Shown: positions 124 to 16,934, counted from the stretch's first letter. The stretch: 18,657 bases of DNA from a virus (IMGVR_UViG_2529293015_000004:1-18657); one strand, 5' to 3'. Made by a program: numbers and translations. The notes: generated from the sequence alone by a model not told the origin.

Positions 124-1236
124 TTATTCAGCCGCCACCGGTTTTAACAAGCCAGCATCGAGCAGTTTACGCGTCAACCACTGCTGGCCTTTACCCGTTA
201 ATTGAGGCGTCAACCGTATCTGGTAGCCATCTTCATCATCCAGCACCACTTCTTTCACCGTGAAATACCCCGCGGTGATGTACTGCTGGAACGGCACATT
301 TTTACGTCCGCCGGACGCAATCAGGATGCCGTTCTCCCGTAACCAGGCAAACAGCGCGTTTTGCTTAAGTCCAACAACCTTTGCAAAATTCCCAATCAGG
401 ATCCCTTTAGCTACTGATACCCGGTCGGCAAAATCGACTTTAGGAGCGGCGGCCACCAGCTGCTGATTTAGCTGGTGGGCTTTCTGTTCCAGAAGCTGCT
501 TTTGTTCAGCCAGTTCGGCAGCCAGGCGCAGAGCTTCTGGAAGCGTCTGGGGGATTGCAACCGGTTGCTGTTCTTTTTGCCGGAAGTAGCTGTCTTCCAG
601 TTTTTCAAAGAATGCCCATGCTTCATTTGTGTCCACGATCTTAGACATGCGTGCAGCGCCGCGCTCTGTCCAGAGTGTAAGGCTTCTGGCGTTCTTACCA
701 ACAGAGTAACTTCCGGTTACTCTGTTCTTAAATTCTCTTAATTTTAAACCAGTTAGAAGAAAGTAATGCTTACCTTCTTCAAAGCGGTCAAGGTTGCGAG
801 ACAAATTGTTACGAATATTGGCTTCATCGACCCCATACCCTCTAGCAAGAGTTTCGGTTGTCACGACACGTACTCCCTGCCATTCCAGAACGGGAATTTC
901 ATCCGGCTGATTCTGAACAACCACCAGTTCCGATTCCTGAACTGAAGGTGCATAAATTTTTTCTGATTTAACGTTAGTTGCTTTCATTCTGTGTGCCTCC
1001 TTGCGTGCTTCGGCTGCGACGGTTGCGTAATTCAGATGCCCCTGTTCGAGCAGGTATTCGCGGATATCAGACAGCAGGATACGGTGAACCGCGTTCTTGT
1101 CCTTTCTCCGGTAAAGTTGTTTGGTGATCATGAAGTAGTTGGCAATAACGCCAGGTATATCCCTGGTACTGATACAGGCAGTGTGCTGTTCAATTGCCTC
1201 GATCATCTCTTCACGGGTAACTAACGATGTTCTCAT
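124..1236 (-). CDS. ant: Phage antirepressor (370 aa), KilAC-type C-terminal domain; Ant1-like
   Basis: 370-aa ORF; C-terminal region (...NVPFQQYITAGYFTVKEV...KGQQWL) resembles the antirepressor KilAC domain; central DNA-binding-like region; start ATG overlaps the stop of the upstream 73-codon gene (ATGA); size matches P1 Ant1 as recalled. Confidence 0.6.
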   Translation of the reverse strand: MRTSLVTREEMIEAIEQHTACISTRDIPGVIANYFMITKQLYRRKDKNAVHRILLSDIREYLLEQGHLNYATVAAEARKEAHRMKATNVKSEKIYAPSVQESELVVVQNQPDEIPVLEWQGVRVVTTETLARGYGVDEANIRNNLSRNLDRFEEGKHYFLLTGLKLREFKNRVTGSYSVGKNARSLTLWTERGAARMSKIVDTNEAWAFFEKLEDSYFRQKEQQPVAIPQTLPEALRLAAELAEQKQLLEQKAHQLNQQLVAAAPKVDFADRVSVAKGILIGNFAKVVGLKQNALFAWLRENGILIASGGRKNVPFQQYITAGYFTVKEVVLDDEDGYQIRLTPQLTGKGQQWLTRKLLDAGLLKPVAAE

Positions 1237-1454
1237 AGTCCCTCCTGAGCAGAAGCGTTAACAGGGAGGCACCAGTAACTGAGAGAATTGCGTGAATCAG
1301 TGGAAAAACGGGCAGAGAAAATACATGGGGCGTCAGGAAGCTGAGAACGTGCCTCATCTTCTGTCGGTGCAATAACGAAGTGATAGTGACGTTTTTGGCA
1401 GGAGTAAAAGCGCCAGATAAATTCAGGATGAGCAGGGGTAGGGATAGTAGCCAC
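1233..1454 (-). CDS. icd: Small protein (73 codons, GTG start) translationally coupled to ant; Icd-like by size and position
   Basis: GTG start 8 nt downstream of AGGAGG; stop overlaps the ant start; 73 codons matches P1 Icd as recalled. An alternative 81-codon TTG-start frame (1211-1456) overlaps, so the frame choice is not certain. Confidence 0.4.
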   Translation of the reverse strand: MATIPTPAHPEFIWRFYSCQKRHYHFVIAPTEDEARSQLPDAPCIFSARFSTDSRNSLSYWCLPVNASAQEGL

Positions 1455-1479
1455 AATGGCAGCCTCCTTTTGCTAATTT

Positions 1480-1570
1480 AAGGAGCTACCGCGTGAGGTC
1501 TCAATCTCAATGGCGGTAGCACTGACTGGGTTGAGACTACCGGCGCAAAAGGGAACCGGCCTGCCTTTCG
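1480..1570 (-). ncRNA. Structured leader upstream of icd/ant with antisense elements; candidate c4-like antisense RNA
   Basis: Nested inverted repeats (gctaccgc 1485-1492 / gcggtagc 1513-1520; ggtctcaatc 1495-1504 / ttgagac 1531-1537); 1545-1566 (gcaaaagggaaccggcctgcc) is near-complementary, in the transcript, to the icd ribosome-binding region (1460-1475); a second direct copy of ggtctcaatc lies at 1687-1696. Boundaries are approximate. Confidence 0.3.
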
Positions 1571-1639
1571 GCAGCCCAGCCAGCACTACCATTGATCTCT
1601 GAGCTAAACGCTACGTATGGCTGTGCGATGGCATGACAC

Positions 1640-1663
1640 AAAAAAAAGACGCTTTTGGCGTCT
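1640..1663 (-). terminator. Rho-independent terminator downstream of pacB
   Basis: On the minus strand: stem agacgc/gcgtct with 5-nt loop, followed by a run of 8 U (complement of A8 at 1640-1647). Confidence 0.5.
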
Positions 1664-1794
1664 GTGTCGCCTTTTGCATTATCCGGGGTCTCAATCCCGG
1701 CACCCATTTTAATGAGGTGCCTGATAAGCATAAACCGAAAATGCCTCAAGGCGCAAGAGGTCAGGTTCAATGTAACATCGGCAGTTAAAAAACA

Positions 1795-1811
1795 CAATTT
1801 ATTAGAGCAAA
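1795..1811 (-). promoter_or_regulatory. C1-type operator-like site (15/17 to ATTGCTCTAATAAATTT) at the pacB stop, upstream of the antirepressor module
   Basis: Plus strand reads caatttattagagcaaa, which is the reverse complement of the consensus with two edge mismatches. Confidence 0.45.
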
Positions 1812-1814
1812 TAT

Positions 1815-3299
1815 TCATTCATTAAGCCATGCCAGAGCTTCATCAACCTGCGCTTCGTCTTCGACGCTAAGCACTTCATCCTGGGGAACATAATCCGCCA
1901 GCATAGCGAAACAATATGTATCCCAATGGTCTGGTGAGTGCAGGTTGAGTTTTTTCTTCATATCCTCCTTACTCATCACCTTCCATTGACCTGCGGAGTT
2001 AATCCCTACAGGGATTTTCGACGCTTCCTCAATAGTTTCATTACCCTTATCCAGTCTCATACGACCAGATTTTACGGCCTCTGCGGCTTGAACGTTGGCA
2101 TAAGCACGTTTATCAAAGTACAGGCTCTTATCTTCACGGCTATGCATCTTTTTACCCCAGCGTATACGCTGTACGGTAATACCATAATACTCGTACATCA
2201 GATCCGCCGTTGCTTTACCCAGGCCATCGCCGTCTATCGCTATGGTGATATTTGGGAATCGCTCAGGATTACATTCTGCGAAAATTTTGGCGGCAAGCTG
2301 CGTTTCTGTAACGTCTGTGTATTCCAGCATTCGATAGTTGATTACACGGCGTTTATTTCGCTGGCCGGACACCATCATGATATTGATAACGGACTTATCC
2401 CGTCCCGTACCACCAGCAACGTCCACACATGCAAGCCAGCCCCATCCTTTGGCAATCTTGACTTTCCGCCGCGTTGCGCGTTCAACCTCATCACGTCCAA
2501 GAAGGAAGCCATCCTGTGATTTAGGGAATAGGCCGCGTACCTTAATCATGTACATAGGGTTATCACGCCCGCCGTACTCCGCCAGCTTCATTTTGATAAA
2601 TGCTGGCGTTACCAGCGGTGATTCCTCACTGTTAAGCGTGATCGCCGTATAAACGCCATCAGGGTTACCAGGACGCTTGGCCAGTTTATGGTGTGTATCG
2701 TAGAAATAGCCGCTTGGGCGTGTAGGCTGTGACAGCAATAAGATGCGGTTATCCTGTCCAGTAAGAGCACCGGTGATGATACCGAAAGCTCTATCACTGA
2801 CACCGGAGGCTTCATCGATAATATACAGAAGATGATCTGCGTGTTCACCGGCGAGAGCTTCTTCACTTCCCAGACGAAAGCCCTTCGGTACTACAGTCCA
2901 TACACCTTTACCAGTAACCTCATAGAAAGCGGTTTCTGTCAGAACAAAATAATCAGCAAGCCATGGGAAACGGCTGGTGGCAGTAGCCCAGTTTATCTTG
3001 ATGTACTTGAATATACCGGTCATTACCTGCTGAATTTTGTTCGCAACGATAATAGCGCGGGCACCGGGATACATGATTATGAACAACATGATCATGATAG
3101 AAGTCATGTCTGATTTCCCGGTACCGTGACCAGACGAAACAGATGTCTTGCTACCCTGTTCCTGCACAGACTCAATAATCAGATCCTGCTGCCAGGTAGG
3201 TGTTTTGCCGAACAAAACATCAGCGGCCGCAATCCAGTCATAACGATATAGCGCCACCAGCTCGCGCCAACGTGGATCCGTTACGCAACTTCTGGCCAT
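1815..3299 (-). CDS. pacB: Terminase large subunit (PacB-like, 494 aa)
   Basis: 494-aa ORF immediately downstream of and overlapping pacA (ATGA at 3299); position and size match P1 PacB as recalled; no terminase motifs were individually verified. Confidence 0.8.
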
Positions 3300-7151: not shown

Positions 7152-8714
7152 ATGAAAATGACAAGTATTCAACAACGTGCAGAGCTTCATCGTCAAATCT
7201 GGCAAATTGCTAACGATGTCAGGGGTTCGGTCGATGGATGGGATTTTAAGCAATACGTTCTGGGCGCACTTTTCTACCGTTTTATCAGCGAAAATTTTTC
7301 CAGCTATATTGAAGCCGGTGATGACAGTATCTGTTATGCGAAACTGGATGACAGCGTAATTACTGATGACATTAAAGACGATGCCATCAAAACCAAAGGC
7401 TACTTCATCTATCCAAGCCAGCTTTTCTGCAACGTAGCTGCGAAAGCAAATACCAATGACAGACTGAATGCAGATTTAAACAGTATCTTCGTTGCTATCG
7501 AAAGTTCTGCTTACGGTTATCCTTCAGAAGCTGACATCAAAGGTTTGTTTGCTGATTTCGATACCACCAGTAACCGCCTGGGTAACACCGTTAAAGATAA
7601 AAATGCCCGCCTGGCTGCGGTTCTGAAAGGGGTTGAAGGGTTAAAACTTGGTGACTTCAACGAACATCAGATTGACCTGTTCGGTGATGCCTATGAGTTC
7701 CTGATTTCTAACTATGCGGCAAATGCCGGTAAGTCAGGCGGTGAGTTCTTTACACCGCAGCACGTCTCTAAGCTGATTGCACAACTGGCTATGCACGGGC
7801 AGACCAGCGTTAACAAAATCTACGACCCGGCAGCGGGTTCCGGCTCACTGTTGTTGCAGGCGAAAAAACAGTTTGATAACCACATCATCGAAGAAGGCTT
7901 TTTCGGTCAGGAAATCAACCATACGACCTATAACCTGGCGCGTATGAACATGTTTTTGCACAATATCAACTACGACAAGTTTGATATCAAGCTGGGTAAT
8001 ACACTGACTGAGCCGCACTTCAGAGATGAAAAACCGTTTGACGCCATCGTATCTAACCCACCGTATTCGGTGAAATGGATTGGCAGCGATGACCCGACGC
8101 TGATTAACGATGAACGTTTTGCCCCGGCTGGCGTTCTGGCCCCCAAATCCAAAGCTGACTTTGCGTTTGTACTACATGCGCTGAACTATCTTTCGGCCAA
8201 AGGTCGTGCTGCGATTGTCTGCTTCCCGGGTATTTTTTACCGTGGCGGCGCAGAGCAGAAAATCCGTCAGTATCTGGTCGATAATAACTATGTCGAAACC
8301 ATAATTTCACTGGCACCGAACCTGTTCTTTGGCACCACCATTGCAGTAAACATTCTGGTGCTGTCTAAGCATAAAACGGATACCAAAGTTCAGTTTATTG
8401 ACGCCAGCGAACTGTTCAAAAAAGAGACTAACAACAATATCCTGACCGACGCCCATATCGAACAGATTATGCAGGTATTTGCCAGCAAGGAAGATGTTGC
8501 TCATCTGGCGAAATCTGTCGCGTTTGAAGCCGTTGTAGCGAATGACTATAACCTGTCGGTGAGCAGTTATGTGGAAGTGAAAGATAACCGCGAAATTATC
8601 GATATTGCTGAGCTGAATGCGGAACTGAAAACCACGGTCAGCAAAATCGACCAGTTGCGTAAAGATATTGATGCGATTGTAGCTGAAATTGAAGGCTGCG
8701 AGGTGCAGAAATGA
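7152..8714 (+). CDS. hsdM: Type I R-M DNA methyltransferase subunit HsdM (520 aa)
   Basis: AdoMet motif [10 protein letters not shown] and catalytic NPPY (VSNPPYS); stop overlaps the hsdS start (ATGA at 8711-8714). Confidence 0.9.
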
Positions 8715-9913
8715 GCGAGTTAAGTTATCTGGAAAAATTGCTGGATGGGATTGAGGTTGAGTGGAAAACACTAGGCAGTATAGCTGAACTAAAGCGAGGC
8801 ACATCAATTACAAAAAAAGATGTTATTGATGGAACCATCCCCGTAGTCGCTGGCGGACGTACACCAGCTTATTATCATAATACTAGTAATCGCGACGGAC
8901 AAACAATTGTTATCGCAGGTTCTGGTGCGTATGCGGGATTCGTTAGTTGGTGGGAGGAACCAATTTTCGTATCGGATGCATTTACTGTAAAACCTCATAA
9001 TATTTTGTTACCACGATATTGCTATCATTTTTTGATGAATATGCAACAACAACTCCATGAGTTTAAGAGTGGTGGTGGTGTTCCGCATGTTTATCCACGT
9101 GATGTATCACCTATTTTGATACCAATCCCCTGCCCGGATACCCCAGAAAAATCCCTTGCCATCCAGTCTGAAATCGTGCGGATTCTGGATAAATTTACTG
9201 CACTTACCGCTGAGCTTACCGCTGAGCTTAACATGCGTAAAAAACAGTACAACTACTATCGTGACCAGTTGTTGAGTTTTAAAGAGGGTGAGGTTGAGTG
9301 GAAGACTTTGGGGGAAATTGGAGATTTTACATATGGATATGCAGCCAAAGCCATGGATTCAGGAGATGCCCGTTTCGTGAGAATTACTGACATAAATAAA
9401 GACGGGAAGCTATCGAAAGAAAACCCAATGTACGTTGAATTAAATGAGGAAAATGAGAAATATACCTTAGACAAAAATGATTTACTCATGGCAAGAACTG
9501 GGGCAACCTTTGGTAAAACAATGATTTTTGAAGAAGATTATCCAGCAGTATACGCTGGTTTTTTAATAAAGTTGAACCTAAATAAAACGATTATTAATGC
9601 CAAATATTACTGGCACTTTGCACAAAGTGATTTTTTTTGGGAACAGGCTAATAAATTAGTATCTGGTGGTGGGCAACCACAGTTTAATGCTAATGCACTG
9701 AAACAAGTCAGAGTACCTATTCCATACCCATCTCACCCTCAAAAATCTTTAGACGAACAGGGGCGTATTGTGGATATTCTGGATAAGTTTGATGCAATCG
9801 CAGCTTCCATCACCGAAGGTCTCCCGCGTGAAATCGAGTTGCGCCAGAAACAATACGAGTACTATCGTGATTTACTGTTCAGTTTCCCAAAACCTGAAAC
9901 TGTCAGTAATTAA
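8711..9913 (+). CDS. hsdS: Type I R-M specificity subunit HsdS (400 aa), two target-recognition domains
   Basis: Duplicated conserved regions (ILDKF...[15 protein letters not shown] and ILDKF...[15 protein letters not shown]); repeated EVEWKTLG at the start of each half; central TAELTAEL repeat. Confidence 0.85.
9203..9226 (+). repeat. Two tandem copies of 12-bp unit CTTACCGCTGAG (plus a 4-nt partial third copy to 9230) in the hsdS central conserved region, encoding LTAE-LTAE
   Basis: Read directly: cttaccgctgag cttaccgctgag ctta. Confidence 0.85.
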
Positions 9914-10034
9914 TTGACCGTTGCTACCGACCGGGCCACCTTAACATCCGGTCTGTATATAGACTATTTTTTACGCGCCGGAAGTCACTCTTAACGCCCT
10001 TCCGGCCCTTGCCAGACGGCACAAAGGATGCGCT

Positions 10035-13000
10035 ATGACTCATCAGACACACACCATTGCTGAATCCAATAACTTTATCGTCCTTGATAAGTACATCAAA
10101 GCTGAGCAAACAGGCGACAGCTATCAGAGCGAATCGGACCTGGAACGTGAACTAATTCAGGACCTGCGGAATCAGGGCTATGAATTTATACCCGTAAAAT
10201 CACAGTCAGCGATGCTGGCCAACGTTCGGGAACAGCTTCAGAACCTCAATGGTGTGGTGTTTAATGACAGCGAGTGGCGGCGTTTCACGGAGCAATATCT
10301 GGACAACCCGAGTGATGGTATTCTGGATAAAACCCGTAAAATCCATATCGACTATATCTGCGACTTTATTTTTGACGACGGGCGTCTTGAGAACATCTAT
10401 CTGATCGATAAAAAGAATCTCATGCGCAACAAAGTGCAGATTATCCAGCAGTTTGAACAGGCAGGTTCTCACGCTAACCGTTATGACGTAACTATCCTGG
10501 TTAATGGCTTGCCTCTGGTACAAATCGAACTGAAAAAGCGCGGCGTGGCGATTCGTGAGGCTTTCAACCAGATACATCGTTACAGTAAAGAGAGTTTTAA
10601 CAGCGAAAATTCCCTGTTTAAATATCTGCAACTGTTTGTCATTTCTAATGGCACCGATACCCGTTACTTTGCCAACACCACAAAGCGCGATAAAAATAGT
10701 TTTGACTTCACCATGAACTGGGCGAAATCAGACAACACGCTGATTAAAGACCTCAACGACTTTACCGCTACCTTTTTCCAGAAACATACTCTGCTGAATG
10801 TTCTGGTGAACTACAGCGTGTTTGACAGTAGTCAGACGCTACTGGTGATGCGACCGTACCAGATTGCAGCTACCGAACGAATCTTATGGAAAATCAACAG
10901 CTCCTATAAAGCGAAAAACTGGTCTAACCCCGAAAGCGGTGGCTTTATCTGGCACACCACTGGTTCCGGTAAAACACTGACCAGCTTTAAAGCCGCGCGT
11001 CTGGCAACTGAACTGGACTTTATTGATAAAGTCTTCTTCGTGGTCGACAGGAAAGACCTCGATTACCAGACGATGAAGGAATATCAGCGTTTTTCGCCAG
11101 ATAGTGTTAACGGCTCGGAAAATACAGCAGGTCTTAAACGAAATCTGGATAAGGACGATAACAAAATTATCGTCACCACTATTCAGAAACTTAATAACCT
11201 GATGAAAGCAGAAAGCGACCTGCCTGTATACAATCAGCAAGTGGTGTTTATATTTGATGAATGCCACCGCAGCCAGTTTGGAGAAGCGCAGAAAAACCTG
11301 AAGAAGAAATTCAAACGCTATTATCAGTTTGGTTTTACCGGCACACCTATTTTCCCGGAAAACGCTTTAGGCTCAGAAACAACCGCCAGCGTATTTGGTC
11401 GTGAATTGCATTCGTATGTAATTACCGATGCGATTCGTGACGAAAAAGTGCTCAAATTCAAGGTGGACTACAACGATGTGCGGCCACAGTTTAAGTCTTT
11501 AGAGACAGAAACTGACGAGAAAAAACTGAGTGCGGCTGAAAATCAGCAGGCGTTTCTTCATCCCATGCGTATTCAGGAAATCACGCAATATATCCTGAAC
11601 AACTTCCGCCAGAAAACCCACCGTACTTTCCCTGGTTCCAAAGGTTTTAATGCCATGCTGGCAGTAAGCAGCGTGGATGCTGCAAAAGCCTATTATGCGA
11701 CGTTTAAACGGTTACAAGAGGAAGCCGCTAATAAATCGGCTACCTATAAACCGCTGCGTATTGCGACAATCTTCTCCTTTGCCGCCAATGAAGAACAAAA
11801 TGCCATTGGTGAAATTTCCGATGAAACTTTTGATACCAGCGCAATGGACAGCAGTGCTAAAGAGTTTCTGGACGCTGCAATTCGTGAATATAACAGCCAT
11901 TTTAAAACTAACTTTAGCACCGACAGTAACGGTTTTCAGAACTACTATCGTGATTTAGCCCAGCGGGTTAAAAATCAGGATATCGATCTGCTAATTGTCG
12001 TGGGGATGTTCTTAACCGGCTTCGATGCTCCAACATTGAACACGCTATTCGTCGATAAAAACTTACGTTATCACGGCCTGATGCAGGCATTTTCCCGCAC
12101 TAACCGCATTTATGACGCCACTAAAACCTTCGGTAATATCGTCACTTTCCGGGATCTGGAACGCTCAACTATTGATGCCATAACGCTGTTTGGTGACAAA
12201 AACACCAAAAATGTGGTGTTAGAAAAGAGTTATACAGAGTATATGGAAGGCTTTACTGATGCTGCTACAGGTGAAGCTAAACGCGGCTTCATGACAGTAG
12301 TTTCAGAACTGGAACAACGGTTCCCTGACCCTACCAGTATTGAAAGTGAAAAAGAGAAGAAAGACTTCGTTAAACTGTTTGGCGAATACCTGCGTGCCGA
12401 GAACATCCTGCAAAACTATGATGAATTTGCCACGCTAAAAGCCCTGCAACAAATCGATCTTAGCGATCCTGTTGCGGTAGAAAAATTCAAAGCAGAACAT
12501 TATGTGGATGATGAAAAGTTCGCTGAATTGCAAACAATTCGTCTCCCTGCTGATCGCAAGATTCAGGATTATCGTTCTGCCTATAACGATATTCGCGACT
12601 GGCAGCGCCGTGAGAAAGAAGCTGAGAAAAAAGAGAAATCAACCACTGACTGGGATGACGTAGTTTTTGAGGTCGATTTGCTGAAGTCTCAGGAAATAAA
12701 CCTGGATTATATCCTTGGACTGATTTTCGAACACAACAGACAAAATAAAGGCAAGGGCGAAATGATCGAAGAGGTCAAACGCTTAATTCGTTCAAGTCTA
12801 GGGAACCGTGCTAAAGAGGGCCTGGTGGTCGATTTTATTCAGCAAACGAACCTGGATGATTTACCGGACAAAGCCAGCATCATTGACGCATTCTTTACGT
12901 TTGCTCAACGCGAACAGAAACGTGAAGCAGAAGCATTGATAAAAGAAGAAAATCTCAATGAAGAGGCGGCGAAACGCTATATTCGCACATCTTTAAAACG

Positions 13001-13151
13001 CGAATACGCCACCGAAAATGGTACAGGATTAAATGATACATTACCAAAACTTAGTCCGTTAAATCCGCAATATAAAACGAAAAAACAGACGGTTTTCCAG
13101 AAAATCGTCTCGTTTATTGAGAAGTTTAAAGGCGTAGGCGGAAAAATATAG
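10035..13151 (+). CDS. hsdR: Type I R-M restriction subunit HsdR (1038 aa)
   Basis: N-terminal PD-(D/E)xK-like region ([19 protein letters not shown]); helicase motifs [32 protein letters not shown]; separated from hsdS by 121 bp, consistent with its own promoter. Confidence 0.9.
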
Positions 13152-13230: not shown

Positions 13231-13317
13231 TTACCCATGCGCGACGATGCCGCCAAAAGTGATAGAGAACAGCCAGAAATAGATCGCGGCCATAATGATT
13301 TTGAATGCCGTGTTCAT
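13231..13317 (-). CDS. Candidate small hydrophobic peptide (28 aa, MNTAFKIIMAAIYFWLFSITFGGIVAHG)
   Basis: ATG preceded by AGGAG at 8-nt spacing; single predicted transmembrane-like helix; operator-like site and promoter-like elements ~85 bp upstream; below the ORF-track size cut-off. Confidence 0.3.
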   Translation of the reverse strand: MNTAFKIIMAAIYFWLFSITFGGIVAHG

Positions 13318-13345
13318 ATTTTCAGCTCCTGTGATTGATTGGATA

Positions 13346-13376
13346 CATGCCGCGTCTTGCGGCATGTTTTTATTTT
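13346..13376 (+). terminator. Rho-independent terminator (stem catgccgc/gcggcatg, loop gtctt, then tttttatttt); probably ends the hsdR transcript
   Basis: 8-bp perfect stem followed by a T-run on the plus strand, ~195 bp after the hsdR stop; lies in the 5' leader of the minus-strand peptide ORF. Confidence 0.5.
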
Positions 13377-13399
13377 CACTTTCTCTGTTTTAAAAATCA

Positions 13400-13416
13400 A
13401 GATTTATTAGGGCAAT
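13400..13416 (-). promoter_or_regulatory. C1-type operator-like site (15/17) overlapping the stop of the HAD-like gene, upstream of the small peptide ORF
   Basis: Plus strand agatttattagggcaat; on the minus strand ATTGCCCTAATAAATCT, followed 17 bp later by TAAAAC (possible -10). Confidence 0.4.
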
Positions 13417-13922
13417 TATTGTTGATGGAGAAGCGCATTTTCATACTCCCTGACCATTAACGTAAGTACGCCGTGTCTCCTGAAAACACGCGCCACTTCA
13501 ATCTTATCTTCCAGCGCGAACGCAATTTTACTTAGACCAATTTTCTTAAGGAGATCAATCTTTGCTGGGCCGTCATTTCTGTCATCGGTGGCAGGACGCA
13601 TAGATAGCAAAGGCTCAGCCCCATTTGTTACGTGCTTACGCAACCAAGCTCGTGTTTTATCCCTGGCTATCTCACAGCGCCCGGTTACAAACCAGAGCGT
13701 GTAAATGCCGGACAACTGGCGCACCATATCAATAACTGGAGTGATGGGAGCATCAGTGTCACAGGCAAGGTTAAACTCGTTCCAGTGCTCTGTTAATGCA
13801 CCTTTGCCAGGTGGTGGAAGTAAATGCAGCCTGTCTTCCGTTGCCTCTGATATCGTTCCATCAATATCTACTATGACGATGTACGGACGTTCCTGGTGTG
13901 CGTGTTTATTGAAAATACTCAA
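13416..13922 (-). CDS. HAD-superfamily phosphatase-like protein (168 aa)
   Basis: HAD motif I DIDGT near the N-terminus (IVIVDIDGTISE), downstream T and K motifs (FVTGR, KIDLLKK). Confidence 0.55.
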   Translation of the reverse strand: MSIFNKHAHQERPYIVIVDIDGTISEATEDRLHLLPPPGKGALTEHWNEFNLACDTDAPITPVIDMVRQLSGIYTLWFVTGRCEIARDKTRAWLRKHVTNGAEPLLSMRPATDDRNDGPAKIDLLKKIGLSKIAFALEDKIEVARVFRRHGVLTLMVREYENALLHQQ

Positions 13923-13994
13923 ATGCCCTCCTCATTGGACGAAAAAAATGCTGGTGGGCGCACTCCACCAGCATTAAAAGTGACACTGTAACTG

Positions 13995-15257
13995 TCAGCG
14001 AACATAAATAGTGCCGCCGTTCTCTTTTTCCCATGCATCGCTACGTGCATAGCAAACATCGAGAAGTCTTCTTGCCGCTGTTTCCTCTAAACCCAATTCG
14101 ACAACCAACTGCTCATGACGGCGGGTAACCACATCAAACAGGGTATGCAGCCCTTTAGCTGCCAGATCATCAATAAATTCCGGTTCGAACGGCAGCTCTG
14201 CCTCTGCCAACATAACCTCTTGCGCCCACTCAACTCGACGGACCAGTTCCGGGCGGCGGCTTTCCATCTCTTTACAGATCAATTCATGGAAGAACTCTAC
14301 CCAACCTTCCGGCTGGAACTCGCGGAAAATGGCCAACGGCTGGAAGTTTGGCATCAACCATTCGTTGATCCGGATATCAATGGCATAGCCCATGTCGCAG
14401 CAGAACTGATAAGCAAAGTCCAGCTTAGAAACGATATAAGGACGCTCGTTATTGAACTCTTTAGGCGATGAGATCCCATAAGCCAGGAGGCGCGGGAAGA
14501 AGGAGATTTGCCCTAACGTCGGATGAAGTTTGCTTGCAGGGAAACGGCGCTCAGTAATGCCATACATTTCCTTCTTGAGCGTCGCAAATTTGGCATTCTC
14601 ATTAACCAGCGCGGTAACCTCTGCTTTTTTATTAGCAAATGCCACGCGCGCCTCGCTTGCATCTTTAATAGTTTTTTTGAGCTGTTGGTTAAGGTCGGCG
14701 ACCTGCTTACGCAGTTCCTGTCGCTCGCTTTTAGCTTTGTTATAGCGTTTCTCAAGGTTAAAAGGATCAAGTTTCATGATCTCTTTATATTGAGATTTTA
14801 GCGTTGAAATCTGTGAGTTCCGCAGTTCAACCATCGCGGTCATTTCATTGAGTTTTGTTTCCAGCTCAATGCTTATACGTTCGGCATTATCAGCACGCTG
14901 GTTGGCGTCATGCGTCGCATCGTCGATCGCGTCCTGTTGCTGGCGTTTCAAATGTTCAATTTCCAGCTGAAGCTCTTCAATTTCTTTACCCTTCAGACCG
15001 AGATCCAACTGCATATTTTCAGCTGCATCTACCAGGGAGTTATGGCTATCAGCTTCTGCGTTATAAACATCAATAAGCTGTGCGTGAAGCATCTCCGCTG
15101 ACTGAACCGCATTATCAAAAAAACGTGCTGTGAGGTCATCACAACTAACGCGGCGTTGCGCGGCCCGGATGTTCTGGATAATGGCCGGGATACCGGCATT
15201 CAGGACATCAGGGATACATACATTTTCGATTGATTGGTTTTGTGCTGAAGTGCTCAT
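13995..15257 (-). CDS. Hypothetical protein (420 aa): long central coiled-coil-like region and a C-terminal domain of unknown function
   Basis: Long ORF translationally coupled to the upstream 72-aa gene (TGAaATG); heptad-like charged segments at roughly residues 80-220; no recognisable catalytic motif. Confidence 0.6.
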   Translation of the reverse strand: MSTSAQNQSIENVCIPDVLNAGIPAIIQNIRAAQRRVSCDDLTARFFDNAVQSAEMLHAQLIDVYNAEADSHNSLVDAAENMQLDLGLKGKEIEELQLEIEHLKRQQQDAIDDATHDANQRADNAERISIELETKLNEMTAMVELRNSQISTLKSQYKEIMKLDPFNLEKRYNKAKSERQELRKQVADLNQQLKKTIKDASEARVAFANKKAEVTALVNENAKFATLKKEMYGITERRFPASKLHPTLGQISFFPRLLAYGISSPKEFNNERPYIVSKLDFAYQFCCDMGYAIDIRINEWLMPNFQPLAIFREFQPEGWVEFFHELICKEMESRRPELVRRVEWAQEVMLAEAELPFEPEFIDDLAAKGLHTLFDVVTRRHEQLVVELGLEETAARRLLDVCYARSDAWEKENGGTIYVR

Positions 15258-15258
15258 T

Positions 15259-15477
15259 TCAAAGTTCCGTATTAGCTTGTGCTTCGGTCATTTTTCCTAA
15301 GTATGAAGGAGGAAGGACTACGCAATTTGTATCCAGTCCCTCACCTATGGCAGCCTGTAAAATTCTGGCTAAGGTGAGTCTCTTGTTGCGATACCTGGTG
15401 ATGACATGCCTGATACCGCCGGTCGGCGTAACAAAGGCGATCAGCCAGTAGTGATATTTCCGTCGGAATGGCCACAT
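15259..15477 (-). CDS. Hypothetical small protein (72 aa), first gene of an operator-controlled operon
   Basis: ATG preceded by AAGGTG at 5 nt; operator-like site immediately upstream; stop adjacent to the start of the 420-aa gene. Confidence 0.5.
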   Translation of the reverse strand: MWPFRRKYHYWLIAFVTPTGGIRHVITRYRNKRLTLARILQAAIGEGLDTNCVVLPPSYLGKMTEAQANTEL

Positions 15478-15490
15478 AGTGCACCTTGTA

Positions 15491-15507
15491 GATTGCTCTA
15501 ATAAAAA
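15491..15507 (+). promoter_or_regulatory. C1-type operator-like site (14/17: attgctctaataaaaaa)
   Basis: Directly upstream of the Shine-Dalgarno/ATG of the 72-aa gene; forms an inverted pair with the site at 15541-15557. Confidence 0.45.
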
Positions 15508-15527
15508 ACGTGATGAGTGTACATCAC
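15502..15527 (-). terminator. Rho-independent terminator (stem cgtgatg/catcacg, 6-nt loop, U6) ending the upstream operon
   Basis: On the minus strand the 7-bp perfect stem is followed by a run of 6 U; lies between the two operator-like sites. Confidence 0.5.
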
Positions 15528-15540
15528 GCTTTAAAAATAT

Positions 15541-15557
15541 GGAATTATTAGAGCAAT
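15541..15557 (-). promoter_or_regulatory. C1-type operator-like site (14/17), inverted relative to 15491-15507
   Basis: Plus strand ggaattattagagcaat; on the minus strand ATTGCTCTAATAATTCC, then a 17-bp spacer and TAAAGC. Confidence 0.45.
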
Positions 15558-15558
15558 A

Positions 15559-16260
15559 TTATTCTGATTCTCGCTCAAAAAATGAGCTGATAAGGGGAAG
15601 CCAATCCTCTGACACTTCGCGAGGTCGCGGTTTGCCGTGGAAAAAGATTATTCGGCAGTCTTTTGGTAATGCCCCATTCCCCCTGGAGTAACGCGCGCTC
15701 GCATATTTTGAACCAGGTTCCACAACATCGGCCTTGTAACTTACAAACCATCCTGGATACAGATCCTGAAATGCTGGTGTATCATCGCCCATAACCTTTC
15801 GTAAGAACCCCTGGTCACCCCAACACTCAGTAGTGACACAACGAGAAATCCAACCTTCCGGATCTTGCCAGAATGAACTCCAGATATGCGCTTTAACACT
15901 ATTTGGTATCCACAGGGCACCGCTGCCACGATATTGTGGATGGTAAAAATCCCTAAGCATGGTGAAGCTGGTTGGTGGATGCTCTAGGATTGGGCGTATA
16001 TCACCGGCAATAACCGTGTCCAAATCCAGATAGAACAGATCATCGGTTATATCCGGTCGGAACAACTCGATTTTCGCCCACCAGCCACGGCACTTTTGCC
16101 ACTGGTTGATCAATGGGACAACTTTGACGCCAGGTACATGTAAACGCTTCAGGTCTGTCAGGCAAATAATTTCATAGCCTTTTGGCAGTTGATTAACCAG
16201 CCACTGCACATCGGAAGCGTTATAGTCACCACCAGAGCGAAAAACTAAAGCAATCTTCAT
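15559..16260 (-). CDS. Putative GT-A fold glycosyltransferase-like protein (233 aa)
   Basis: DxD motif in a hydrophobic context ([13 protein letters not shown]) and a C-terminal FHGKPRP resembling the GT8 H-x-G-x-x-KPW region; ATGA coupling to the upstream phosphatase gene. Confidence 0.5.
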
Positions 16261-16934
16261 TCTGCACCATCACCTTTCACTTTCATCAATGTCAGGTTTC
16301 CGCAAAATACGGCACCAGTGTCGATATACTGCTGATTCCAGAATGTCTTCGGGCTTTTCACCGGAGTGTGACCAAAGATAAAACGATCTGCGCCCGAAAT
16401 TTCGCCACCAATATCATCCATCGAATCACTGATACGCTCGCGCGCCCAGACAACGTTGAAAAGCGGCACCTCCTTACCGAATTGGTATTCATTATCCGGA
16501 TAGTCGGCATGGGCTATAACGATAGTTTCTTGCCCGGTGTTCAACTCAATGATATAGGGCAGACGCTTTACCAGCTCCACCAGCGCCCAGGCTAATATTT
16601 CCTGATCAGTGTCCAGCATGAAGAACCATTGTCCGCCATTCATTAGCCAGTTATTCACGTTGCCATCTGGACTTAACGCATCAATCATCAGCCGCTCATG
16701 GTTCCCCATCACTGCCCTGAACCAGGGCATCTGCAATAGTTCCAGACATTCGACATTTTCAGTACCGCGATCGATAAGGTCGCCGACCGATATCAGTAAA
16801 TCCTGCGCCGGGTCAAAATCCACACGATGGAGTTCGGACATCAGTCTGGTGTAGCAACCATGCAGATCACCAACAACCCAGACATTCCTGTATTTGGTAC
16901 CGTCGATACGGTGATAAATTGTGGGTGCCATCAT
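16257..16934 (-). CDS. ppp: Lambda-type Ser/Thr protein phosphatase (metallophosphoesterase), about 225 aa
   Basis: Motifs GDLHG, GDLIDRG, GNHE; the likely start is one of the tandem ATGs at 16934/16931, which overlap the upstream gene's TGA (ATGATGG). Confidence 0.85.

Follow-up and report, generated by a model that had tools for sequence, protein, structure and literature searches.

The 66-bp element between the pmgQ and pmgR genes, in the 18,657-nt stretch of viral DNA analyzed here (the window), is already known as the Op86a/Op86b-PpmgR region of phage P1, an ordinary phage control region. It probably combines the terminator of the pmgN-pmgQ transcript with a nested, C1-repressed promoter of pmgR-pmgS that carries an operator at each promoter edge. 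The original prediction read the element essentially correctly, but did not recognize it as a known and named element of phage P1.

The element fills the pmgQ-pmgR spacer of a P1-like phage-plasmid

With ~98% identity to P1, the window belongs to a P1-like phage-plasmid. A BLAST comparison of positions 13300-16400 gave 98.3% identity to P1; the same segment shares 97.7-98.9% identity with P1, P7, SJ46, RCS47 and JL22, and 687 plasmids matched. The P1 annotation (AF234172/NC_005856) was placed on the window by offset (window coordinate = L001 locus + 10299). Its gene order is the same, i.e. pmgQ, element, pmgR and pmgS. The features around the element are:

15559-16260, minus strand: pmgQ (233 aa), last gene of the upstream unit (ORF list and AF234172 annotation)
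15484-15487, minus strand: AAGG, a Shine-Dalgarno-like motif 6 nt ahead of the pmgR ATG (sequence reading)
15259-15477, minus strand: pmgR (72 aa), first gene of the controlled unit (ORF, annotation, knockout and complementation)
13995-15257, minus strand: pmgS (420 aa, coiled coil), second gene of the pmgR-pmgS unit (ORF and annotation)
13947-13975, minus strand: terminator-like hairpin 3' of pmgS with 11 pairs, 6 of them G-C, and T5 (terminator scan)

The knockout and complementation of P1 pmgR, an essential head-completion gene, have been published (PMC9024508). No Pfam domains were found in the 72-aa and 420-aa proteins. The idea that these tandem genes represent an int-xis/attP arrangement was dropped once BLAST identified them as P1 pmgR and pmgS. 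The hairpin at 13947-13975, between pmgS and pap, is probably the end of the pmgR-pmgS unit, which appears to be bounded by terminators at both ends.

The spacer between pmgQ and pmgR is 81 nt long and the element takes up nearly all of it. The pmgQ stop codon (TAA) is at 15561-15559 and the first operator begins 1 nt further on; at the other end, 14 nt including the AAGG motif lie between the last base of the element (15492) and the pmgR ATG. Several plasmids match the query only to ~15736 inside pmgQ (query positions 1-507 of 571); these alignment ends indicate a putative recombination breakpoint within pmgQ among P1-like plasmids.

Two inverted C1 operators delimit the element

The ends of the element form a perfect 13-nt inverted repeat, ATTGCTCTAATAA at 15492-15504 and TTATTAGAGCAAT at 15545-15557, with 40 nt separating the arms. 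The original prediction had placed the element at 15491-15557; the element is real, but it starts 1 nt later, at 15492. The two inverted operator-like sites that were described in it turned out to be identical to annotated operators of P1:

15541-15557, minus strand: operator a, ATTGCTCTAATAATTCC, which is P1 OpmgRa (formerly Op86a), a C1 site (identical to the annotated P1 feature; consensus match)
15492-15508, plus strand: operator b, ATTGCTCTAATAAAAAA, which is P1 OpmgRb (formerly Op86b), an inverted C1 site (identical to the annotated P1 feature; consensus match)

Both 17-mers agree with the C1 consensus ATTGCTCTAATAAATTT at 14 of 17 positions, and positions 1-13 match perfectly. PMC8546580 is the source of this consensus and gives 22 as the number of such operators in P1. 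The window contains 4 matches to this consensus, compared to 0.14 expected, and none of 200 shuffles reached 4. In AF234172 OpmgRa and OpmgRb are labeled "monovalent C1-controlled operators" and OpmgRa is said to control expression of pmgR and pmgS. The annotation together with the identity in sequence and position establishes that both sites are P1-type C1 operators. By the same token C1 would be expected to occupy the two sites in lysogens; no c1 gene was identified within the 18.7-kb window. A text search of the literature for Op86, OpmgR and PpmgR returned nothing relevant.

The 66-bp element differs from that of P1 at one base, where the window has a G at 15529 and P1 an A (TAAAGC vs TAAAAC). 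The operators are separated by 32 bp from edge to edge and by 49 bp from center to center, or ~4.7 helical turns.

Other segments of the window also contain C1-type operators or border on one. A complete type I restriction-modification cassette at 7152-13151 (plus strand), which encodes HsdM (520 aa), HsdS (400 aa) and HsdR (1038 aa, EcoR124_C), lies between pap/Op88 and phd-doc, where P1 carries pmgT...humD. The P1 record notes a resemblance of both junctions (pap/Op88 and phd-doc) to the sequences flanking the EcoDXXI and R124 hsd loci; the position thus looks like a recurrent cargo site. Next to it, at 13231-13416 (minus strand), an Op88-like operator (ATTGCCCTAATAAATCT, 13400-13416) with a promoter is followed by a hairpin and a 28-aa hydrophobic ORF; this ORF (MNTAFKIIMAAIYFWLFSITFGGIVAHG, 13231-13317, minus strand) has an AGGAG ribosome site and is followed by a terminator that is convergent with hsdR. 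No CDS is annotated in the homologous 180-nt gap between Op88 and pmgT in P1.

A second immI-like immunity module is located at 124-1830 (minus strand) directly after pacB. Phages JL22 and RCS47 share this arrangement, and P1 has no high-coverage match to the segment. Its parts are:

1795-1811: C1 operator
1642-1720: isrK-like RNA
1509-1596: C4 antisense RNA
124-1236, minus strand: antirepressor with ORF6N and KilAC domains

A hairpin with a U6 tract lies downstream of the pmgQ stop codon

Read along the minus strand, operator a is followed by a 12-nt A/T-rich stretch, a hairpin and a T6 tract, after which comes ATTAGAGCAAT, whose last base is 15492. The hairpin begins 30 nt past the pmgQ stop codon and consists of the arm CGTGATG (15528-15522), the loop TACACT (15521-15516) and the arm CATCACG (15515-15509), followed by T6 (15508-15503). 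In plain terms:

15509-15528, minus strand: hairpin, proposed intrinsic terminator of the pmgQ transcript (fold energy, covariation)
15503-15508, minus strand: T6 tract, U tract of the proposed terminator; its plus-strand complement, A6, forms the 3' end of operator b (sequence)

The stem has 7 bp, including 4 G-C pairs, and additional A.U and G.U pairs lengthen it to 11 bp (15505-15532). The sequence and the calculated fold agree with the 7-bp-stem hairpin and U6 tail that had been proposed for the minus strand: the RNA folds with -13.4 kcal/mol (z -5.49), a value that none of 200 shuffles matched. Folded as the plus strand, the sequence reaches only -9.1 kcal/mol (z -2.8) and is without a U tract. 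Hence the structure has the layout of an intrinsic terminator, with a G+C-containing stem-loop, a U tract directly behind it and a position downstream of a stop codon.

A consensus terminator scan of the window did not list the hairpin at 15509-15528; it did list the homologous hairpin in the metagenomic lineage L211. The miss in the window can be attributed to a greedy G.T/A.T extension of the stem, which would consume the T tract. The element has no Rfam match. Although the P1 record otherwise describes the same locus, it differs from our description in having no terminator among its listed features; since no terminator feature of any kind occurs among the first 300 of the 329 features listed for the second half (47.4 kb) of that record, the silence of GenBank on this point is uninformative.

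From these data we infer that the hairpin and U6 act as an intrinsic terminator that would end the pmgN-pmgQ transcript. The original claim that the element terminates the upstream operon is thus borne out at the level of prediction, by the position after the pmgQ stop codon, the U6 tract and the compensatory changes in relatives described below.

An RNA that reads through the whole region (15470-15570, minus strand) could fold further. In this RNA the copies of operators a and b pair and stack on the hairpin, which gives a 24-bp helix with a 12-nt bulge. The full element then reaches -30.8 kcal/mol (z -5.4), and the helix lies directly upstream of the pmgR ribosome site.

The stem of the hairpin covaries in divergent relatives

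A search of genome contigs with PmgS recovered two near-identical loci, a search of viral contigs with a PmgS alignment recovered 80 near-identical loci, and a scan with the operator pattern recovered mostly identical elements. The close relatives are almost invariant, and their stems carry single-base variants at about the same frequency as the rest of the element; the polymorphism of these close relatives is too shallow to reveal selection. The divergent relatives came only from a protein search and contig look-ups. They comprise Cronobacter phage JK004, Salmonella plasmids (~71-75% DNA identity in this region) and three metagenomic lineages that were found via PmgS homologues with 64%, 52% and 27% identity. 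The set used for covariation contains eight sequences from about five lineages, including JK004, the Salmonella plasmids, L211 and L205/L207 (PmgS identity 52-71%).

The cores of both operators persist in relatives with as little as 52% PmgS identity; that of operator a is TGCTCTAAT, or TACTCTAAT in one lineage. The outer length of the element is exactly 66 bp in all lineages down to this level, and in L205 a +1 and a -1 indel cancel each other. The relatives have a hairpin at the same place with energies of -13 to -16.5 kcal/mol. The stem CGTGATG/CATCACG is replaced in relatives by CATGGTG/CACCATG, CATGGTG/CGCCATG and TGTGGTG/CGCCACA, meaning that three of the seven pairs are altered on both sides, and 94.6% of the cells are paired. 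None of 500 shuffles reached the observed covariation score, and slid registers scored far lower. Three sequences have a U.G wobble, which would be a C.A mismatch if the other strand were transcribed. Only the RNA of the minus strand can form these wobbles and accommodate the A-U to G.U changes seen in the stem extension. In L211 the hairpin is re-registered into an 11-bp stem.

The U tract is less uniform. T6 is kept in P1, JK004, the Salmonella plasmids and L211; its conservation as U6 in these four lineages is confounded with the conservation of operator b. In L205/L207, the lineage with 52% PmgS identity, T6 is degraded to TCTTGATT; these sequences keep the hairpin, which is then followed only by UCUUGAUU, and the scan calls no terminator there. 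A stem that persists without a good U tract means that the hairpin may be selected for something besides termination. It could, for example, be a DNA site for a dimeric protein that flanks the -10 box, or a 3'-end or processing structure such as an RNase III helix, and not a terminator at all. A palindromic protein site that co-evolves with its protein would also produce symmetric changes in the two arms, and the stability of the fold of the full element is in line with a processing structure. However, the U.G wobbles (3 lineages) and the A-U to G.U changes fit pairing in the coding-strand RNA and not DNA symmetry, and L211 has kept its hairpin by a shift in register and not by the sequence of a half-site. 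Furthermore, a U6 directly behind a stem that follows a stop codon is the classic layout of a terminator, and the outer helix of the full fold consists of the operators, which are conserved for protein binding. We consequently give the non-terminator explanation a small chance.

In the most distant relative, L210 (PmgS identity 27%), the homologous spacer contains at 2701-2753 a different 18-nt inverted repeat with the core AAGATACTAATTTAT and a 17-nt gap, without a hairpin. This suggests that dual inverted repressor sites in front of pmgR may be older than the C1 operator sequence itself.

RNA-seq data from P1vir support a local early promoter

The original prediction presupposes that the downstream operon is not simply read through from upstream without a local promoter. 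This question can be addressed with two RNA-seq tables; both list log fold changes per gene, with uninfected cells as the baseline, and both were obtained with P1vir rather than with the present element. In the wild-type host at 10 min the values for pmgO, pmgP, ppp and pmgQ are 7.4, 7.0, 6.9 and 7.0 and those for pmgR and pmgS are 9.0 and 10.0 (PMC8201110, Table S1). In a dksA host the same table gives 6.2 for pmgQ compared to 9.0 for pmgR and 9.1 for pmgS. An independent P1vir data set from a wild-type host has 5.94 for pmgQ vs 7.96 for pmgR and 8.21 for pmgS at 10 min, and 8.08 vs 9.36 and 10.04, respectively, at 20 min (bioRxiv 10.64898/2025.12.28.696737). Altogether, pmgR and pmgS exceed pmgQ by ~2-3 log2 units (~4-8-fold) at 10 min in two data sets and three host backgrounds. 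The tables place pmgR-pmgS among the strongest early genes of P1vir.

Because read-through cannot produce a step up across the spacer, a promoter is expected in or near it. The same step would also result if the promoter lay within the 3' end of pmgQ. With this margin in position, the P1vir data support a local early promoter for pmgR-pmgS near the spacer and speak against simple read-through.

The alternative is that there is no local promoter and that pmgR-pmgS is expressed by regulated read-through of the hairpin, i.e. by attenuation or antitermination, with C1 acting only as a roadblock. The role of pmgR is late (head completion), the nearest annotated late promoter (LPpmgL) is upstream of pmgL, and neither candidate promoter of P1 is a strong match to the consensus; all this would suit such a scheme. 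Yet the excess of pmgR/pmgS RNA over pmgQ at 10 min is found in both data sets, and consensus-grade promoters are present inside the element of relatives. In addition, pmgQ rises ~24-fold from 10 to 30 min, whereas pmgR/pmgS do not follow this rise and increase only ~3.4-fold, similar to the 3.8-4.5-fold of the early-only genes pmgT/pmgU (PMC8201110). These rises are compatible with little late read-through; they are no proof of termination. Regulated read-through control, which had been raised in the original prediction, therefore finds no support, and we judge an arrangement of this kind extremely unlikely.

A CRISPRi screen in P1 was also considered as evidence for an independent promoter. 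A roadblock in pmgQ was harmless, but a guide against pmgR also scored as non-essential (PMC10695390). This evidence was set aside because the essential gene pmgR itself scored as non-essential. A literature search found no published TSS or Term-seq maps of P1.

The hairpin loop is a candidate -10 box

Two promoters can be placed in the element. Both overlap the hairpin and the operators, as had been anticipated for any promoter of the downstream operon:

15551-15556, minus strand: TTGCTC, -35 box of the GenBank-predicted sigma-70 promoter PpmgR, inside operator a (AF234172 by offset)
15528-15533, minus strand: TAAAGC (TAAAAC in P1), -10 box of the GenBank-predicted PpmgR, whose last base is the first base of the stem (AF234172)
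15539-15544, minus strand: TTCCAT, alternative -35 box that overlaps the 3' end of operator a (weight-matrix scan; consensus scan in relatives)
15516-15521, minus strand: TACACT, the hairpin loop, candidate -10 box (TAnnnT) of the pmgR promoter (invariance, promoter scans)

By consensus both candidates are weak in the window and in P1 (TTCCAT-17-TACACT, and TTGCTC-17-TAAAAC or TAAAGC), and a consensus promoter scan of the window called no promoter in the element. The relatives are more informative. The loop reads TACACT, TATCAT or TATTAT in the different lineages, such that T1, A2 and T6 are invariant; these positions correspond to the three strongest positions of a -10 hexamer. The homologues of TTCCAT are TTTACT, TTTAAT and TTGATT. 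With an approximate weight matrix the loop-centered promoter is the top candidate in every lineage, and an independent consensus scan calls it with 9 of 12 matches as TTGATT-16-TATTAT in L205 and as TTTACT-16-TATCAT in L211 and JK004. The comparative data favor a -10 box in the hairpin loop, with the putative -35 box at the 3' edge of operator a.

This assignment departs from AF234172, in which the -10 box is set 5' of the stem and not in the loop. If the GenBank assignment is correct, transcription would start at ~15522-15520, operator a alone would occlude the promoter, operator b would be a roadblock at ~+13 to +29, and the hairpin would still be a terminator. The GenBank promoter has the merit of being annotated, and it has parallels elsewhere in P1. 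Op88 (OpmgT) with its promoters P1pmgT and P2pmgT is a paralogous operator-promoter module that shares ATTGCTCTAATAA.T....ATTTTTAAAAC with the present element. It resembles the element in its location at the stop codon of the upstream gene pap, in having one predicted -35 box within the operator and another, that of P1pmgT, at the 3' edge, where it begins with the last base of the operator, and in the strongly early expression of its genes; it differs in having a single operator without an inverted partner and no hairpin between operator and gene. The identical pair TTGCTC-17-TAAAAC follows Op88 as P2pmgT, and pmgT/pmgU, too, are strongly early. P1ban, which is recorded without the qualifier "predicted", likewise has its -35 box at operator positions 2-7. 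On the other hand, the near-invariant final T is missing from the GenBank -10 box, whose sequence has also decayed in the window (TAAAGC), JK004 (TGAAGC) and L211 (TGCGGC); the TAnnnT of the loop, by contrast, does not vary. With the approximate matrix it also scores below the loop promoter in every lineage. We therefore regard the GenBank position as unlikely.

The start site would be at about 15510-15508 with the loop as -10 box. In either model transcription starts inside or after the hairpin; a local transcript would hence be without a complete stem and escape the terminator.

Other promoters were looked for in the same region. The 9-bp -22 element (AAGTGACTT-like) of the Lpa-dependent late promoters of P1 is absent, by eye, upstream of TAnnnT in the spacer. 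A mirror promoter that starts from operator b on the plus strand was rejected, as sequence reading found no usable -10 box. An antisense promoter ATGATA-18-TAAAAT, which points into pmgQ, was called at L002 2788-2817 (plus strand) and L211 779-808 (minus strand). The match, in which the -35 box is the complement of the loop, is found in JK004 and L211 and is absent in P1 and in the window; it may be due to chance.

Proposed repression by occlusion at both promoter edges

In the reading we favor, the element works in three steps. Transcripts that arrive from pmgN-pmgQ would be stopped by the minus-strand hairpin and U6. A sigma-70 early promoter within the same element would start pmgR-pmgS. 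In a lysogen, C1 would bind both asymmetric 17-bp operators and shut RNA polymerase out at both edges of the promoter; operator a would cover the -35 box and the upstream edge, and operator b would cover ~+1 to +17, with its A/T-rich half being the T tract of the terminator. Inactivation of C1 would then turn on pmgR-pmgS as an early unit that is independent of the upstream operon. Repression is known for the C1 operator family and is presumed here.

The original prediction had suggested that a repressor acts by looping or by occlusion. Looping finds no support, and simple occlusion at both promoter edges is sufficient. Repressor sites upstream and downstream of a core promoter, as in this element, are also found at OE/OI of the gal operon. 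Dual operators of the gal type depend on oligomeric repressors and on in-phase looping. The present operators, in contrast, are asymmetric and spaced out of phase, and occlusion is enough by itself. The bivalent operator Obanab (Op72ab) of P1 is similar to the present arrangement in that the same repressor acts on two inverted 17-bp sites at one promoter. However, Op72a and Op72b overlap with an 11-bp offset as a near-palindrome, whereas here the sites are apart and the hairpin and the core promoter lie between them.

Cooperative looping or bridging by C1, which would trap the promoter in a small loop between the operator centers, deserves consideration because the operators are inverted, because the 66-bp spacing is invariant across lineages and because two inverted sites occur in the corresponding spacer of the distant L210 as well. 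Moreover, C1-mediated looping has reportedly been seen at the Op99 operators of P1. But the distance between the centers is very short for a loop in addition to being out of phase, and the fixed spacing is already accounted for by the -35/-10/+1 geometry and the hairpin. The label "monovalent" on both operators in GenBank also speaks against looping, as does L210, where the arms are only 17 nt apart and the distance is consequently not conserved. Looping is thus very unlikely, and occlusion of a promoter nested in the terminator remains the reading that we prefer.

Significance

A more far-reaching version of this reading is possible, although we hold it only tentatively. It sees the element as a self-insulating promoter in which single bases have several uses: the -10 box would be the loop of the terminator, and the U tract would double as the A/T half of operator b. 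By binding there, C1 would block the promoter at +1 and at the same time act as a roadblock at the point of termination, which would strengthen termination in lysogens. A polymerase bound to the promoter and an elongating polymerase from upstream would interfere with each other, and a read-through RNA with its 24-bp helix could be cut by RNase III. Triple use of this kind, if real, would be a compact way in which nature uncouples neighboring phage operons, within 66 bp that are conserved to the base across lineages.

Our additions to the annotation of 2004 (Lobocka et al.) are minor: they are the covariation of the hairpin, the loop as a conserved -10 box and the fixed 66-bp geometry, and we found no statements of these in the accessible literature. 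The element has little significance beyond the biology of P1, for which it shows how a small early unit is kept independent of the adjoining upstream operon. If confirmed by transcript mapping, it would neatly illustrate how a terminator, a promoter and two operators can share the same stretch of natural DNA, and it might be of use as a compact, insulated and repressible promoter part.
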